Shown here: positions 17,048 through 40,151 of the stretch, in pieces | How the letters are laid out: the number at the start of each line of letters is the position of its first letter | Numbering within the stretch: the stretch's first letter is position 1 | Virus record (IMG/VR): IMGVR_UViG_3300017774_005323 | Coordinates: 1-57,107 of that record | Length of the DNA: 57,107 bases | Reading direction: 5' to 3' (one strand) | DNA from: a virus | Taxonomy: Duplodnaviria > Caudoviricetes | Notes under the pieces: generated by a model | The model's input: only the letters and a program-made list of their open reading frames with translations | What the model was told of the DNA's origin: nothing | Database searches by the model: none | Translations under genes and position numbers: made by a program

Positions 17048-17103
17048 GTGTTACATATTTGGCGGTCTGATACTTATGTGCTACATTTGTGGAAACAAAA
17101 AGC

Positions 17104-21462: not shown

Positions 21463-21553
21463 TACGTTCGTCGATGGTTTTTGTACGTTGGTCTATAAAA
21501 AGCGATGTTTGGTCGATGCGGTGGTAAAAATTAGGATGGCGATATTATCTTTG
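21463..21553 (+). promoter_or_regulatory. Triple-box promoter P2
   Basis: Boxes at 21470, 21491 (GTCTAT), 21512; TATCTTTG at 21546; preceded by a terminator at 21432-21463. Confidence 0.85.
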
Positions 21554-21585
21554 CTACATCGTTTAACAAATAAAATAACGCAACA

Positions 21586-21864
21586 ATGCAAATCACAGAA
21601 ACAACAGACGAGGTGCTTAATATTTTAGGCGTAAAATTTGAGTACCAATCAAATTATTCAGGTCACGGGGGCCGAATAATTGACCCAGGGCCATTTAAGG
21701 GATTAAATTTGCGCCCCTCTATTTGTACGCGCCCTGGATTTTGGTATGCCGATATTCCAGACGGGCAAGACAAGGAAATGGAGCAGGTTTTTTCCGGGCA
21801 TTTTTTTCGCAGAAGCGACGGCTATCCAATTATTTCGGCTGGTTTAGCGCCAAGTTTAAAATAA
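21586..21864 (+). CDS. Small accessory protein (P2 cassette)
   Basis: 92 aa between P2 and a terminator at 21879-21909. Confidence 0.7.
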   Translation: MQITETTDEVLNILGVKFEYQSNYSGHGGRIIDPGPFKGLNLRPSICTRPGFWYADIPDGQDKEMEQVFSGHFFRRSDGYPIISAGLAPSLK

Positions 21865-22006
21865 AAAAAAATTGACTTAAACGCCCTGCACAAAATGCGG
21901 GCGTTTTTTGTTAATGTCCAACCATTCCACAAAATTATGTGTTACATATTTGGTAGTTTAACACAAATGTAACACATTTGCACACACAATAAAAAACGCA
22001 AGAAAA

Positions 22007-22750
22007 ATGTCATTTACAACACAAGAAAACGCACCGGACAGCAGCCGGAAAACAATTGCTGAAAAATGCGGAAACGACGCAGCCGCAATAGAAGCCATGC
22101 GGAAACGCTGGAGCCGATATATCGGAACCGCTTTTGATCGGAACCATGTAGCGACGGACGCGGAAATGTGCCTGTTATACCCAAGCGGAAACGCACGGAC
22201 AAAAAAACCGCTAAAGGAAACCAAAGCGGAAACTTTGGACATTCCAAAAGCGGAAACAAAAGCGGACATTTTACCGGACATTAAAGCGGAAACGGACACA
22301 ACACCACAAACGGAAACAACTCAAAAAACGGAACGGACAAACGGACAAAAAGCCGTTTTGATCGCTTGTATGGCTGTCCCCGCTATTGCATCGCTACAAA
22401 ATATGTGGGCGGTTACGTCGGACATAAGCGGACACGTTTCGATGTCCGTTTTGCTCACACTTTTATTTTCCGCTTTTCCGTTTGCGCTTACTTTGGCCGG
22501 GGCAACTACGAAAGCCGGGCGCATACTTGTCGGGCTTATGATCGTATATGAAGGCTTTTGCAACTTCATACGCATATACGGCGGCTTAACGGGATTTGGA
22601 AAAGATGGCTACCCTACCCGCTTTTTGGGCATTGTTACGGAGGTGCTGAACACGGGAACATACGGCACCGCAACCGTTTTGGCAGCGATTATGGCGCTAC
22701 TTTGCGGCGCTGTTTTTTACATTTCTTACAACGAATTATTAAAAAAGTAG
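22007..22750 (+). CDS. Membrane protein with putative N-terminal DNA-binding region and repetitive linker
   Basis: Basic helical N-terminus, KAET repeats, about 4 C-terminal TM helices. Confidence 0.65.
   Translation: MSFTTQENAPDSSRKTIAEKCGNDAAAIEAMRKRWSRYIGTAFDRNHVATDAEMCLLYPSGNARTKKPLKETKAETLDIPKAETKADILPDIKAETDTTPQTETTQKTERTNGQKAVLIACMAVPAIASLQNMWAVTSDISGHVSMSVLLTLLFSAFPFALTLAGATTKAGRILVGLMIVYEGFCNFIRIYGGLTGFGKDGYPTRFLGIVTEVLNTGTYGTATVLAAIMALLCGAVFYISYNELLKK
22035..22480. repeat. CGGA(A/C)A motif array 1
   Basis: 22 CGGA copies at 22035-22432 in all three frames, then 3 inverted TCCG copies. Confidence 0.85.
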
Positions 22751-22753
22751 CAT

Positions 22754-23089
22754 ATGGCAGTCTTTGAAATTACGGTTAAATCGCGCCCTATCGAGGCGCT
22801 AAAGTCAAACCAGCAAGCGCCGGGGGTGTTTGATTGGTCCGAATCAAAGCAGATCGAACTGACCTTAACCGAAATTTCAAAGATTAAGCAAAAGCACCAG
22901 GGCTACACCCCAAACCTCACCCGTGCCGTTCGGGTAAAGCGCTTAATGTTGGAGTGTTACAGCCTAAATGACATTATAAAAATACTCAAACACAACGGGC
23001 GGGGGTACGGCGAACGTATGCTTAAAAAGGATCATGCAGCCCTGACAGAATCCAAGCCCCCTATCGGTAGGGGAGTGGCCTCAAAATAG
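22754..23089 (+). CDS. Basic hypothetical protein, possibly DNA-binding
   Basis: 111 aa; helical C-terminus RAVRVKRLML...GYGERMLKKD. Confidence 0.55.
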   Translation: MAVFEITVKSRPIEALKSNQQAPGVFDWSESKQIELTLTEISKIKQKHQGYTPNLTRAVRVKRLMLECYSLNDIIKILKHNGRGYGERMLKKDHAALTESKPPIGRGVASK

Positions 23090-23157
23090 TGCCTATACGG
23101 TGCAATTCGTTTTGCACTTTTCATAAATCATTCATTCACAATAAAATACAACGCAAC

Positions 23158-24762
23158 ATGCAAAAGACTTTTGCACCTACTTTGCCCCGCCTTCAAACCT
23201 TATTTTTGTTCGGGGTAGGGGTATGTATGCTTTTGGGATTGTCCCTAACCATAGCGGCTTACATGCTTTTGCCGATCAATCCAAATGGCGATGAATTAAT
23301 TTTAATGATCGTTTCATGGGGTAGTAGCGCCTTCATTCTTACGATGAATTTTTGCCTTTGTGGACTATTCGCCGCGTGTATTGTCGCTTCGATTATCTAC
23401 AACATGGGCAAAGGGTTAACGATTAATCACACGGTTTTGGAACTTACAAACGGCGAAAAACTGCAACAACTAAACGCCGTAACAATTAGCCCCGACCTAT
23501 TGATCGTAAACCAAACGAATACAGAAACAAAGCGCGATCTATTGGAAAGGTTTAACCAGGCAAAAGCAAACCAGGTAGACGGCGTTTGGATTGTCTGCAT
23601 TGCATACCAAGACGTTTGCGGCTTGCTCATAACTGACACGGGCGAATCATACGCCTTTGATCGTAACACACCGCCGTTCCAAGCCGATGAAACAGAAACG
23701 CCAATTGCAGCGCATGACTACAAGGGCGAAACATGGGCCGAATACCAAGCCTATTTGAACGAATTTTGTTTCCACTATAACAGATGGGCACCGCGTGAAA
23801 AACTGATTGCTCCAACCGGGAAAAGCGCGGAAAAGAAAATTAATGTCCTTTGGTCATTGTCCGTTTTGTTTGTCCTTTTCGCGTTTCCTTTGTCCGCTCA
23901 AAAGTCCGTCCGGGTTATGGAGTACTTAGGACAAACGCGCTATTTGTCCGTTCGCCCTATCGGACAAGTTAAGTTTGTTTTTGAGGACACGCCGATCAAC
24001 CGGACAGGGGACGGAACAAAGACTTATGCGGAACTTTTGAAAGGCGGCGCATACTTTAACGATGCGGACAATGCTGGACGGCTTATCGCTATTCAAGTTG
24101 TAAACGGTGGGCAAATAAAAACCGTCTACCCAGACAAAGCCGAAACGCCGCAAACGTCACAAACTTCAAAAACTTCAAAAACTTCAAAAACGGCGAGTGC
24201 AAGCGTTACACAAAGCGCACTACCAGCGCCGGGCGAATTGCAATTAGATGACAGTTTGCAAACAGCGATTGCAATTGAAGCATGGAAAGAAAAGATCGAC
24301 AAAAGCACAAAAAAGATATGGGGGCAAAGTTTGCAATGGTGGAAACTTGCTATCTATGTGTTGGGTAACTTTTTCCATGTACTTATGGGGCTTTTGGGTA
24401 TCAGTATCCTTGTCGCAAAAACAGCAACAAAAGAAAGTGTAATAAATGCGTGTGGAACAAGTATATACGGCGGCTATCTGCATAACATTGCGGCGGGTGC
24501 GATACTTTGGACATACATTTTTTCCATTTTGATTGCGATTATAATGCTGATAAATATCTATATACTTGCATTAACAGGCGACTTCGCCTCTATTGTTTCG
24601 ATTTTCATATCCTGGCAATTCGGGGGCGTTATATTATGGTTTGCTCTTATCGCAATTGTTAGAAAAATTGTAAACAAAGTTGTACCTGACCCGCAAGTTA
24701 TAAACGCGCCGCCGCATCGACCATACGCAGCGCCGAATCAGTATAAAGGCTTAAATCAATAA
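23158..24762 (+). CDS. Polytopic membrane protein (534 aa)
   Basis: Two N-terminal TMs, internal KK-hydrophobic-LSA|Q segment, about 3-4 C-terminal TMs. Confidence 0.7.
   Translation: MQKTFAPTLPRLQTLFLFGVGVCMLLGLSLTIAAYMLLPINPNGDELILMIVSWGSSAFILTMNFCLCGLFAACIVASIIYNMGKGLTINHTVLELTNGEKLQQLNAVTISPDLLIVNQTNTETKRDLLERFNQAKANQVDGVWIVCIAYQDVCGLLITDTGESYAFDRNTPPFQADETETPIAAHDYKGETWAEYQAYLNEFCFHYNRWAPREKLIAPTGKSAEKKINVLWSLSVLFVLFAFPLSAQKSVRVMEYLGQTRYLSVRPIGQVKFVFEDTPINRTGDGTKTYAELLKGGAYFNDADNAGRLIAIQVVNGGQIKTVYPDKAETPQTSQTSKTSKTSKTASASVTQSALPAPGELQLDDSLQTAIAIEAWKEKIDKSTKKIWGQSLQWWKLAIYVLGNFFHVLMGLLGISILVAKTATKESVINACGTSIYGGYLHNIAAGAILWTYIFSILIAIIMLINIYILALTGDFASIVSIFISWQFGGVILWFALIAIVRKIVNKVVPDPQVINAPPHRPYAAPNQYKGLNQ
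23828..24080. repeat. TGTCC/GGACA motif array 2
   Basis: About 8 GTCC/TTCC copies followed by about 9 GGAC/CGGAA copies; orientation flips near 23930-23960. Confidence 0.75.
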
Positions 24763-24765
24763 ACT

Positions 24766-24870
24766 ATGACTTTTTTACTTGCAATACTTTTTTACCTTTT
24801 GGGAATGTTTAACGGCGTAATATTAGGAGGTATCCTAAAGACGCTCGACATTAAAGACAAAAGGCAATAG
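24766..24870 (+). CDS. Small single-TM protein
   Basis: MTFLLAILFYLLGMFNGVILGG..., followed by a terminator at 24887-24918. Confidence 0.5.
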   Translation: MTFLLAILFYLLGMFNGVILGGILKTLDIKDKRQ

Positions 24871-24912
24871 CACACAATACACACAAAAAGCGCCCTACTC
24901 CAAGGGCGCTTT

Positions 24913-25003
24913 TCTTTTCGTCGATCATTTGCTTACGTTCGTCGATAAAAACGGTACTTTGGTCGATACGGTGTTGACAGCGCGCATTTATGTGTTATCT
25001 TTG
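24913..25003 (+). promoter_or_regulatory. Triple-box promoter P3
   Basis: GTCGAT at 24920, 24941, 24962; TATCTTTG at 24996. Confidence 0.85.
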
Positions 25004-28168: not shown

Positions 28169-29020
28169 ATGAGCCAACTTAAAAAATCAAGTACAAGCAT
28201 AAATGAAAACGCCCGTAAAAGCATGGGCATAACACGCGATGAATACGCGCTTTGCTCTTATGCGCTTTACCGTTGTGCAGACCCGCGTATGAAGTTGGTC
28301 GGATGGTGTACCGATACCAAAGACGATGTAGCGGATTTTGTGGGCATTACGCGCCCTGGGCTTTACAAAATGATCGCACGTTTGGAGCAAAGCGGGCTTT
28401 TGGAAACGCAAGCGGGAACGGGTTTTTTCCGGGCAACGGCGCAATTTATTGACATTCAAAATGGCACCGAAAGCAAAGAAAATGCAAAGCAAGATTGTAA
28501 ACAAAGTTTACAGCAAGAAAACGAAAGTGTAAACAAAGTTTACAGCGAGTGTAAACAAAGTTTACAAGGCAGTGTAAACAAAGTTACGGGTAATATAGAG
28601 GTACAGTTAGATATTAGTATGAATAAGGTTAATAGTGAGGCAGATTTAAAACCTTTGCCTAAAAACAAAAAAAAGGAAAATGAAAAAACAGCCGCCGCCG
28701 CCGAAATTTTGGCGCACCTCAACGAAAAAGCCGGGCGGTCGTTTGATGTAAAAAACCCGCAAACCCAAAAGTATGTCATTGCCCGACTAAATGAAGGAAT
28801 GAGCATCGAAGAAGCAAAGCGGGTAATTGATTTTAAGGTTATGAAATGGAATCCTGATGCGAACATGCGCCAATACTTGCGACCTGACACGCTCTTTAGC
28901 GGAAAATTTACGATCTATTTAGAGGAAGCAACGCCCAAAAAACCAAAACCACAACCGCAAAGCGAAGGCCAAAGCGCAACAAGCGGCGCAATTATCAAAA
29001 ACGGCATTGAATGGTTTTGA
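28169..29020 (+). CDS. Replication initiator (wHTH plus conserved phage C-terminal domain)
   Basis: VADFVGITRPGLYKMIARLE HTH; ILAHLNEKAG...YLRPDTLF; internal iterons. Confidence 0.85.
   Translation: MSQLKKSSTSINENARKSMGITRDEYALCSYALYRCADPRMKLVGWCTDTKDDVADFVGITRPGLYKMIARLEQSGLLETQAGTGFFRATAQFIDIQNGTESKENAKQDCKQSLQQENESVNKVYSECKQSLQGSVNKVTGNIEVQLDISMNKVNSEADLKPLPKNKKKENEKTAAAAEILAHLNEKAGRSFDVKNPQTQKYVIARLNEGMSIEEAKRVIDFKVMKWNPDANMRQYLRPDTLFSGKFTIYLEEATPKKPKPQPQSEGQSATSGAIIKNGIEWF
28496..28587. repeat. Replication origin iterons
   Basis: Palindromic TGTAAAC-AAA-GTTTACA at 28496, 28528, 28550 and a partial copy at 28573, followed by AT-rich DNA. Confidence 0.88.
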
Positions 29021-38714: not shown

Positions 38715-38846
38715 TGAATTGCGGCGATTAAAACCAAACTTGCAAAAGCCGAAACAATGTGCTACTTTTGTGTTATGAAAATGCGAGTGTGAATTATGTA
38801 TTGCGCTTGCATTTATGTAACACACATGAACAGTGTAAAAACAGAA

Positions 38847-40151
38847 ATGGAAAACGAAATAAAAAAAGTAAGGGTTAAGGATCTGGTTTTAAACCCGATT
38901 AACCCGCGAACGATAAAAGACGAAAAGTTTAAGCAACTAAAAAAGTCTATATCAGAGTTTCCCGAAATGCTCGCAGCGCGGCCCATCGTTGTAAACAGCA
39001 AGATGGAGGTACTAGGCGGCAATATGCGCCTTCGCGCAATGCTTGACCTGGGCATTGAATACGCAAACGTTGTAGTTACCAATTTCACAGACGAGCAGCA
39101 AGCCGAATTTATTATCAAAGACAACCTTTCCTTTGGTGAGTGGGATTGGGATGCCCTGGCGAATGAATGGGACACGGAAAAGTTGCAGGATTGGGGCTTG
39201 GATATTCCATCTTATGCGCAATATGATGAAGAAGAAAAAGAGGCATCAAAAAAAGATGCTACCGACAGTTTACGAGCAAAGTTTATTGTACCTCCGTTTT
39301 CAATTCTTGATACTCGGCAGGGATATTGGCAGGATCGAAAACGAGCATGGCGTGAGATAATTGGTGATAATGGTGAAAGTCGTGAAAACAAATTGTTCAC
39401 CAGCCCGCCGACAAATCCGGTAAGCAAAAAACTACAAGAGTCCGGAGGCGTTTCACTTCTCGACCCGGTTCTATCTGAAACAATTTGTCATTGGTTTGCT
39501 GTACCAAACGGAACGGCATTTGATTGCTTCGCTGGTGATTCTGTTTTTGGATATGTAGCGGCCTATACCGGACAAAAATTTACTGGTATCGAGTTGCGTC
39601 AAGAACAAGCAGATCTAAATGCAGCCCGAGTAGCGGGGATGTCAGCGCAGTATATTTGCGATGATGGGCAAAATGTTTGTAATCATATAGAGCCGGAAAG
39701 CCAAGATTTATTTTTTAGTTGCCCGCCATATTTTGATCTTGAGGTTTACAGCGACCTTGAAAATGATGCAAGCAATCAAGGATCATATCCGGATTTTCTG
39801 CAAATATTAAAAAATGCATTTACCGGCGCGATCAAGTGCTTGAAGCCTAACAGATTTGCTGTTGTTGTTGTTGGCGACATACGGGATAAAAATGGGTTTT
39901 ACCGTTGTTTCCCCGATGATATTAAAGCCATTTTTAAGGAGCAGGGTGTTCTTTTTTACAGTGATCTTATACTCATCGAGGTTATTGGAACGGGTGCATT
40001 GCGGGCCTCTAAACAAATGGGAAATCGAAAGCCTGTAAAGTGCCACCAAAACGTATTGGTATTTTACAAAGGCGATCCAACAAAGATCAAAAGCATCTAT
40101 CCAAAAATTGAAATACCTGAAACAGATGGAAGCCAGGATGTGGAACTTTAG
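38847..40151 (+). CDS. ParB-like N-domain fused to an amino-MTase-like domain (start may be 38826)
   Basis: NPINPRTI...GGNMRLRA...IIKDN; FDCFAGDS (motif I), GIELR, SCPPY (motif IV). Confidence 0.85.
   Translation: MENEIKKVRVKDLVLNPINPRTIKDEKFKQLKKSISEFPEMLAARPIVVNSKMEVLGGNMRLRAMLDLGIEYANVVVTNFTDEQQAEFIIKDNLSFGEWDWDALANEWDTEKLQDWGLDIPSYAQYDEEEKEASKKDATDSLRAKFIVPPFSILDTRQGYWQDRKRAWREIIGDNGESRENKLFTSPPTNPVSKKLQESGGVSLLDPVLSETICHWFAVPNGTAFDCFAGDSVFGYVAAYTGQKFTGIELRQEQADLNAARVAGMSAQYICDDGQNVCNHIEPESQDLFFSCPPYFDLEVYSDLENDASNQGSYPDFLQILKNAFTGAIKCLKPNRFAVVVVGDIRDKNGFYRCFPDDIKAIFKEQGVLFYSDLILIEVIGTGALRASKQMGNRKPVKCHQNVLVFYKGDPTKIKSIYPKIEIPETDGSQDVEL

Follow-up and report, generated by a model that had tools for sequence, protein, structure and literature searches.

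A dense CGGA(A/C)A array inside the gene of a putative membrane-anchored phage protein, a candidate docking site for the gene's own product

The virus record IMGVR_UViG_3300017774_005323 is a complete virus genome of 57,107 bp with direct terminal repeats, and the whole of this stretch of DNA is referred to below as the window. The subject of this report is the gene at 22007-22750, here called gene 1, together with a dense array of the short word CGGA(A/C)A that occupies its 5' part. A first-pass annotation, made from the sequence, had counted 22 CGGA copies in about 400 bp, where one or two are expected by chance, and had proposed that selection acts there at the DNA level. The features of the gene and the array are the following.

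22007-22750, + strand: gene 1, 247 amino acids (aa), with a helical, helix-turn-helix (HTH)-like N-terminal domain (N-domain), a disordered linker and a conserved membrane domain
22037-22186, + strand: region coding for the N-domain, residues 11-60, delimited by AlphaFold2, a conserved pattern and weak profile matches
22340-22741, + strand: region coding for the membrane domain, residues 112-245, delimited by the strongest conservation, AlphaFold2 and hydrophobicity
22035-22432, + strand: array of 22 CGGA(A/C)A-type words in three codon phases
22247-22333, + strand: sub-array, a degenerate 12- and 18-bp tandem repeat coding for a KAET/KADI-type linker peptide (Tandem Repeats Finder, TRF)
22443-22448 (TGTCCG), 22467-22472 (TTTCCG) and 22475-22480 (TTTCCG), - strand: three inverted copies closing the array

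The first of the 22 CGGA copies on the + strand starts at 22035 and the last lies at 22429-22432; a 23rd copy, at 22638, falls outside the array. The complementary TCCG is absent from 22007-22440 and then appears at 22445, 22469 and 22477, within the three inverted copies that the first-pass annotation had also placed at 22443-22480. The genome as a whole contains 178 CGGA in its 57,107 nt (3.1 per kb), and a 400-bp stretch would be expected to have about 1.25; both the count and the chance expectation given earlier hold. The runner-up 400-bp stretch of the genome has 6 copies, and the cluster is unique, no cluster elsewhere exceeding three sites. Eighteen of the 22 copies read CGGA(A/C)A, divided evenly between CGGAAA (9) and CGGACA (9), and the local consensus around the words is AA(G/A)CGGA(A/C)AC. 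The copies are distributed over the three codon phases as 5, 12 and 5. The predominance of the two hexamers and the use of all codon positions, both reported before, are thus confirmed.

Two amino-acid-preserving controls were run, each with 5000 replicates. When codons were resampled by the genome's own usage, the mean number of CGGA was 5.0 (standard deviation 1.9) and the highest value in the 5000 runs was 13, as compared with the 22 observed. When synonymous codons were permuted within gene 1, the mean rose to 8.2 with a maximum of 16, and none of the 5000 permutations reached 22. A vanishing of the enrichment in such shuffles, which had been named in advance as the refuting outcome, did not occur. 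The effect is confined to the first two parts of the gene. The non-repetitive part coding for the N-domain (22007-22204) contains 10 CGGA against 2.1 expected (maximum 7, 0/5000) and the part coding for the linker contains 10 against 2.6 (maximum 9, 0/5000); the part coding for the membrane domain, with 3 against 1.6, is not enriched. Since the enrichment outlasts amino-acid-preserving controls, these results show that selection acts on the nucleotide sequence and not on the protein alone.

In the full-length AlphaFold2 model of the gene 1 protein, which has a mean predicted local distance difference test score (pLDDT) of 82.9, residues 11-60 form the N-domain with a pLDDT of 85-96 and three helices at residues 17-20, 25-38 and 51-57. 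Modelled alone, the N-domain has a pLDDT of 66.5. Its conserved pattern is T-I-x-E-x-C/A-x-x-x-G-x-x-x-D-x-x-R-K-x-W-x-R. The linker, residues 61-110, is disordered and variable. Residues 112-245 form four long helices and one short helix in the model and carry two strongly conserved motifs, FCN..RIYGGLTGFG and GYPTRFLG. A Kyte-Doolittle scan finds two segments strongly hydrophobic and two further long helices moderately so. The helical N-terminus and the linker of the layout proposed earlier are supported by the AlphaFold2 model; its "about 4" transmembrane helices rest on the model, because just two segments are strongly hydrophobic in the scan. A topology with the N- and C-termini both inside fits the charge distribution, as read by hand and not by a topology program.

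Gene 1 is a real gene. A collection of 5.8 billion proteins contains 18 relatives at 37-92% identity (19 proteins with the query, E <= 1e-3), and in a HMMER search over 1.84 billion representatives the family comprises 133 clusters (50% identity), of which 95 match at E <= 1e-10. Genes 1-3 (genes 2 and 3 being the two that follow) fall into no Pfam, PHROG or NCBIfam family, the NCBIfam matches (E 0.014-0.035) lying far under the cut-offs. Among 50,697 phage records, nothing was matched by blastn of 21500-24800 or by tblastn of protein P0014. The best feature score for gene 1 in the ESM Atlas was 0.84, to unnamed clusters. In 401 genomes of the class to which the one bacterial genome with a family member belongs, there were one clear match and two weak partial ones, adding no lineages. 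A literature search of one collection of papers returned no account of the gene 1 family, nor of a phage membrane HTH protein with sites in its own gene. The family, built as N-domain, linker and FCN..RIYGGLTGFG..PTRFLG membrane domain, is undescribed, and its shared architecture and motifs are confirmed. One member, on a contig of a Saprospiraceae metagenome-assembled genome (L022, 4725-5927), lies in a single 400-aa frame with an upstream stretch that resembles a GIY-YIG nuclease motif, as judged by eye; this frame may be a fusion, or may reflect a missed stop or start.

The comparison with relatives covered 33 loci, each given an L number (21 plus 12, two of the 12 on contigs already counted), and made use of five sub-family alignments; 18 loci had a usable 5' region, L008 and L013 being one lineage. 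In an a-priori test for CGGA with 2000 amino-acid-preserving resamples, none reached the observed number in L004 (23 copies), L005 (19), L012 (8), L013 (8) or L021 (11), and one of 2000 did so in L008 (7 copies); CGGA was not enriched in L002, L003 and L011. Whole-protein identity to the window protein is 79% for L004, 64% for L005 and 38-39% for L008, L012 and L013, and L021 is 33% identical in the N-domain and 45% in the membrane domain. L008, L012, L013 and L021 each have 5 further CGGA within the non-coding 200 bp upstream of the gene, for example CGGAAACGGAAACGGAAATTCCG. The recurrence of the same array with proteins about 33-39% identical, partly in a non-coding leader, adds to the amino-acid-preserving controls in favour of selection at the DNA level.

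For an unbiased test, every 5-mer was counted in the 5' coding sequence together with 70 nt of leader, and the highest count was compared with that from shuffled leaders plus resampled coding sequence. By this test 12 of the 18 loci were enriched at <=2/1000; L003 reached that level with 4-mers only, bringing the enriched loci to 13 of 18. The word differs by lineage. It is CGGAA in the window, L004, L005, L008/L013, L021 and L002, (G)CGAAC in L003, CGAAA in L034 and L035, CACGAAA in L027, GCAAA in L011, and ATTCGG in L036, where 8 copies are spread over all three frames. Whatever the word, leader arrays have one layout in common, in which an inverted copy comes after three or four direct ones, as in L008 and L021 (CGGAA), L011 (GCAAA) and L034 (CGAAA). 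In L036, L028 and L029 the start codon comes almost directly after the promoter box, and the words begin right behind the ATG. With so short a leader the array starts behind the ATG, and its position therefore tracks the promoter and not the reading frame. The 38-kb record of L036 has 6 of its 13 AATTCGG at the family gene. The 47.8-kb record of L035 has 10 of its 60 GCGAAA within 160 bp at the family gene, 6 forward and 4 reverse, a mixed orientation that fits duplex recognition. The window, L036 and L035, the genomes in which this could be checked, each have one such cluster only. The word does not simply follow membrane-domain similarity, because L011 and L019, whose membrane domains are 57-58% identical to that of the window, have other words, whereas L021 (45%) keeps CGGAA.

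Variation of the array was also seen between strains. In contigs of two other runs (X4 and X6) the array differs from that of the window by whole repeat units: 12 bp are missing at 22247, a 36-bp stretch is duplicated, and replacements of 37-38 nt at 22318-22323 bring in further CGGA words. The array expands and contracts between strains, and the word is retained.

Gene 1 is the first of three genes, starting at 22007, 22754 and 23089, that are tightly packed between a promoter-like box and a terminator-like hairpin.

21885-21910, + strand: terminator-like hairpin (21885-21901) followed by a T-run, closing the upstream transcription unit
21940-21980, + strand: promoter-like region, with an inverted repeat TGTTACA...TGTAACA and the box TGTAACACATTTG (21968-21980)
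22754-23089, + strand: gene 2, 111 aa, no family; adjoins gene 1 in part of the family only
23089-24762, + strand: gene 3, polytopic membrane protein of 557 aa (534 aa from the ATG at 23158), no family
24886-24913, + strand: bidirectional terminator-like hairpin closing the three-gene operon

Boxes resembling TGTAACACATTTG, which we take to be a Bacteroidota-type -7 element (TAnnTTTG), also precede other gene blocks at 17049, 33341 and 37174. A second element, a palindrome of the form GTGAAA-N4-6-TTTCAC (in the window TGTTACA...TGTAACA, 21940-21976), stands just upstream of the TAnnTTTG-like promoter box. The GTGAAA-type palindrome lies about 20-45 nt upstream of the start of the family gene in L003, L008, L011, L027, L029 and L030, and it is probably an operator for another regulator.

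The long open reading frames of the genome are all on the + strand. The genes and elements elsewhere in the window that bear on what follows are these.

17503, upstream of the array gene: RecT-type annealing protein
18261, upstream of the array gene: PD-(D/E)XK nuclease
19196, upstream of the array gene: DUF3127 protein
20392, upstream of the array gene: metallophosphoesterase
28169-29020, downstream of the array gene: replication initiator (phrog_428, Pfam Phg_2220_C)
28493-28585, inside the initiator gene: four iterons of about 20 nt, (A/G)TGTAAACAAAGTTTACA, each an internal palindrome, spaced 22-32 bp
29351, downstream of the array gene: DnaB-type helicase
38796-40151: ParB-N-like domain fused to a DNA methyltransferase (phrog_498, E 4.7e-123, plus ParB-like PHROGs)
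40815, downstream of the array gene: terminase large subunit
51036, downstream of the array gene: tape measure protein

The host is probably a Bacteroidota bacterium, because of the DUF3127 match and because the sole bacterial genome contig with a relative of gene 1 is labelled Saprospiraceae.

What, then, reads the array? The array is never parted from gene 1, even in different neighbourhoods: the gene follows recombination genes in the window, comes directly after an endolysin-like gene in L005, L006 and L036, and stands behind cro-like HTH genes in L003 and L019. Since mosaic phage genomes usually keep a site together with its reader, the simplest assumption is that the array would be read by the N-domain of gene 1. 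We give about an even chance to the CGGA(A/C)A words being double-stranded DNA docking sites for this domain. Sites within the reader's own gene have a parallel in the same genome, in the four iterons within the replication-initiator gene. The docking reading would have the sites read as DNA, the own N-domain as the reader, and tethering plus repression as the outcome. Gene 1 would be expressed as the first of three genes in an operon that brings its own promoter and terminators. The cytoplasmic N-domain would emerge first, beside the template, and could bind the array in the 5' part of its own gene; being translated first next to the template, it would bind preferentially in cis. The C-terminal domain would then insert into the inner membrane. 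Many weak sites of four to six base pairs, together with many membrane-fixed copies of the protein, could give a high-avidity attachment of the genome to the membrane, and the complex of protein and array just downstream of the promoter may act as a roadblock that throttles the operon, a form of autoregulation. If the own product does dock here, tethering probably matters as well as repression, with a fair share of doubt left.

Several observations weigh against docking by the own product. The N-domain resembles an HTH, and the assignment is not established. Pfam searches with 56 family members gave HTH_Tnp_1 (E 0.028), GntR (0.028) and HTH_20 (0.044), each in 1 of 56 and stray. A profile of 51 N-domains against PDB sequences matched HTH segments of MGMT (E 0.01), TraR (0.044), PH1932 (0.2) and Lrp-type proteins (0.6), and these matches (E 0.01-0.7) are individually non-significant. 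Foldseek returned no match to the N-domain model at E <= 0.001, the best Z in VIA-align was 3.2, with the DNA-binding domain of pSK1 Par at 2.4 and an excisionase at 2.3, all of them at noise level, and a fold search with the full-length model gave nothing significant. The structure prediction proposed for the N-terminus thus yielded a confident helical fold in the full-length model, and it gave no significant match to solved HTH folds. Five of the 18 loci (L017, L019, L020, L028 and L029) have no significant array, and the array is therefore common, not universal. Recognition helices group with words, the RKRW type with CGGAA and the RMRLA type with CGAAA or GCAAA; this possible covariation is suggestive, and it is confounded by shared descent and by the small number of lineages. 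Twenty-two sites exceed an operator's need, and tethering itself is something we infer. At the close-strain scale there is no purifying signal on the CGGA cores: 2 of the 13 substitutions among those listed (22026-22238) strike them, about the share expected from length, the point substitutions being too few. Two further points concern the transcript. All 22 copies in the window, and nearly all in the relatives, are on the sense strand, and the 376-nt 5' region has a folding energy of -87.1 kcal/mol as compared with -70.9 ± 4.9 for shuffles (z -3.28, 0/100 as stable). The strand bias and the stable 5' fold therefore keep some probability, if a low one, for a role at the RNA level.

Such a role would have the words act in the mRNA, as a repeated 5' element for an RNA-binding protein or as mRNA structure, controlling the translation or stability of a potentially toxic membrane protein, and the arrays do begin at the 5' end of the transcript. 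It is made less probable by the mixed orientation of the L035 array, and by the inverted copy in each array, whose spacer is too short for a hairpin, as in CGGAAATTCCG. The ATTCGG of L036 resembles the CGAA-type words of the family on the opposite strand only, a weak point with its 4-nt core, and the gene 1 protein has a domain with a pattern resembling DNA-binding HTH motifs. A sponge RNA of the CsrA type, with GGA motifs, was among the readings set aside, no search of Rfam having been made. The words could also be read as DNA by another factor, be it the 111-aa protein encoded at 22754, some other protein of the phage or a regulator of the host; gene 1 would then merely host the sites. Gene 2 has an HTH-like stretch, recognised by eye with no family match, and is syntenic in L004-L007, L011/L015, L028 and L036; moreover, many relatives have a separate GTGAAA-N-TTTCAC palindrome ahead of the promoter box, which suggests that other regulators act here. 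However, the L008/L013 lineage has strong CGGAA arrays, no gene 2 detectable by BLAST and different downstream genes, and the array accompanies gene 1 in every neighbourhood. Gene 2 was likewise not found by BLAST in the L002, L019, L027, L029 and L035 contexts, where, as in L008/L013, different conserved genes lie downstream. The array is therefore independent of the 22754 protein, and the proposal of the first-pass annotation that this protein might be the binder is not supported. A host factor would leave the differing words in otherwise similar phages unexplained. Altogether, we consider a reader other than gene 1 unlikely.

The array is unique in the genome, and direct-repeat arrays within genes are typical of lambda-type origins and of packaging (pac) sites in small-terminase genes, so that an origin or a pac site has to be considered. 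Both are very unlikely here. A candidate origin lies elsewhere, in the four palindromic iterons of the initiator gene, just upstream of the DnaB-type helicase gene; these are likely the replication origin, in a lambda-O-like arrangement. The terminase large subunit gene lies 18 kb from the array, and in relatives gene 1 stands after endolysin or cro-like genes and not beside replication or packaging genes. The CGGA array was rejected as an iteron origin, being 6 kb from the iterons and in a gene unrelated to the initiator; since classical iterons lie within the initiator gene, the array is not the replication origin. It is hardly credible, finally, that the enrichment has no function and is a by-product of slippage in a low-complexity linker together with codon bias. 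The tandem repeat at 22247-22333 makes up about half of the array, the array changes by whole units between strains, and the amino acid sequence alone lifts the expected CGGA from 1.25 to about 5. Slippage does not account for the 10 copies, in three frames, in the non-repetitive sequence coding for the N-domain (2.1 expected, 0/5000), for the same word being enriched in 33-39% identical proteins and in non-coding leaders, or for other words at the same place in other lineages.

The first-pass annotation had also suggested segregation without ParA, or DNA transfer. One trait of a partition system is present, a short-repeat array (22 CGGA and 3 inverted copies) at the gene of the candidate binder. 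Six-frame searches of the whole genome, whose positive controls matched 10-14 of 14 genomes, found no ParA-type ATPase (PF13614, AAA_31; control 14/14 genomes), no FtsK-type pump (PF01580) such as FtsK/TraB-clt-type DNA translocation modules have, no tyrosine integrase and no serine recombinase. Nothing ParA-like came out of the PHROG and Pfam scans of the window proteins either, ParM not being searched separately. A repressor or antirepressor was not named in PHROG scans among the proteins scanned, which is absence of evidence only. The ParB-N/methyltransferase fusion at 38796-40151, judged by its context, is no partition protein. The model has no N-terminal beta-strand of the kind that a ribbon-helix-helix (RHH) binder has, and the conserved helix of the L008 type starts at residue 2. 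In the absence of ParA, integrase and recombinase, nothing shows a replicon state in need of partition, and the idea of a plasmid-like segregation system did not stand; the results speak neither for nor against DNA transfer. A plasmid-type partition system was accordingly rejected: the array is there, but no partner NTPase, no RHH binder and no partition-requiring state was seen.

The array and gene 1 belong to none of the systems with which they were compared, for the RHH fold, the NTPase partner and the initiator context are all missing. In a lambda-type origin the iterons lie in the linker-coding part of the initiator (O) gene, and factor and site are inherited as one module. The likeness is that binding sites are embedded in the binder's own gene, and the same arrangement is found at 28493-28585 here; but such an origin has four iterons of about 20 bp as compared with 22 short words, and gene 1 codes for a membrane protein that has no relation to initiators. 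Regulators of the ToxR/CadC type have a cytoplasmic N-terminal DNA-binding domain and a membrane anchor, and bind direct repeats at target promoters. They resemble gene 1 in the fusion of an N-terminal DNA-binding domain (putative here) to a membrane part. They are cellular activators with an OmpR-type winged helix, a single TM helix and a periplasmic sensor, and their sites lie outside their own coding sequence, whereas those of gene 1 lie within it.

The closest anatomy is that of parH/OF of plasmid TP228, where clustered short boxes lie by the gene of their binder. In the available text of its description, ParG coats 20 degenerate, mostly direct tetramer boxes beside its own genes; the boxes serve as operator and centromere, the coating is cooperative, and function scales with box number (PMC3130281). 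ParG is described there as an RHH protein that works with the ATPase ParF (ParA-type); it is plasmid-borne, and its boxes are non-coding (PMC3130281). In our case the words are within coding sequence, the candidate reader is predicted to be all-helical with a membrane domain, there is no ParA, and the replicon is a phage. SpdA2 of the Streptomyces plasmid pIJ101 binds the sps site inside its own coding region, and loss of the site or of SpdA2 affects segregational stability, according to the accessible part of the report (PMC4170104). The likeness lies in a site within the binder's own gene, and the difference, as far as that part goes, in one conserved palindrome with no array, on an actinomycete rolling-circle plasmid, and in there being no mention of a membrane domain (PMC4170104). 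StbA of R388, in the portion of the preprint available, is a small protein with an N-terminal HTH that acts on two sets of 9-bp direct repeats, ten in all, at the promoter of its own gene (stbS); it autoregulates and positions DNA without a plasmid-encoded NTPase (bioRxiv 10.1101/2022.04.29.490116). The likeness to StbA is one of description, and StbA differs in being soluble and plasmid-borne and in having non-coding repeats with fixed 2-bp spacers. The p16.7 protein of phi29 is presented in the accessible text as an early membrane protein of the phage, with a proposed role in bringing viral DNA to the membrane and organising its replication there; it acts through terminal protein and displaced single strands, and that text describes no sequence-specific site array (PMC4974454). 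Its architecture is another, and no homology to it was detected.

Beyond the single phage, the family could be a widespread and undescribed class of self-docking membrane tethers, in which the nascent protein would bind an array of a private word in cis and then insert into the membrane, word and recognition helix co-evolving. We offer this as a tentative and somewhat doubtful extension. Outside a handful of models, among them phi29 p1/p16.7 and the jumbo-phage nucleus, little is known of how phage genomes are placed in the cell. If true, a self-docking tether would hold the incoming genome at the membrane, either as a place for early transcription or replication or as a shelter from cytoplasmic defences, and the design would be convergent in tailed phages. 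It would be a one-protein, ATPase-free device that joins genome to membrane by a simple mechanism, through sites in its own gene; it would be a clear case of dual coding, with a protein sequence and a protein-binding array in the same 400 bp; and it would give a function to an unannotated family of at least 133 protein clusters. Should word and helix co-evolve, each phage lineage would own a private anchor; the lineage-specific words make a natural specificity-swap system. If the array were an autoregulatory operator only, it would still be an instructive instance of regulatory sites overprinted on coding sequence, of ordinary interest.

The operon, complete with promoter and terminators, behaves as a movable cassette, for it is found at different places: in L005 and L006 it stands between the endolysin-like gene and homologues of the window genes 53969 and 55712, and in the window it is placed after the recombination genes. 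In lineages without the 111-aa and 557-aa proteins (L009, L013, L002, L022, L035 and others) a second conserved gene set lies downstream of the family gene, comprising a 136-144-aa protein of the MGALSSFLNFF..PNWNG..FEFGRTNV type, several small membrane proteins and a lysine-rich small protein. For gene 3 of the window the ESM Atlas gave no usable match, the Atlas model having a pLDDT of 0.41. Within gene 3, at 24152-24192, a 9-bp tandem repeat, AAACGTCAA, in 4.6 copies encodes a TSK-type peptide repeat.

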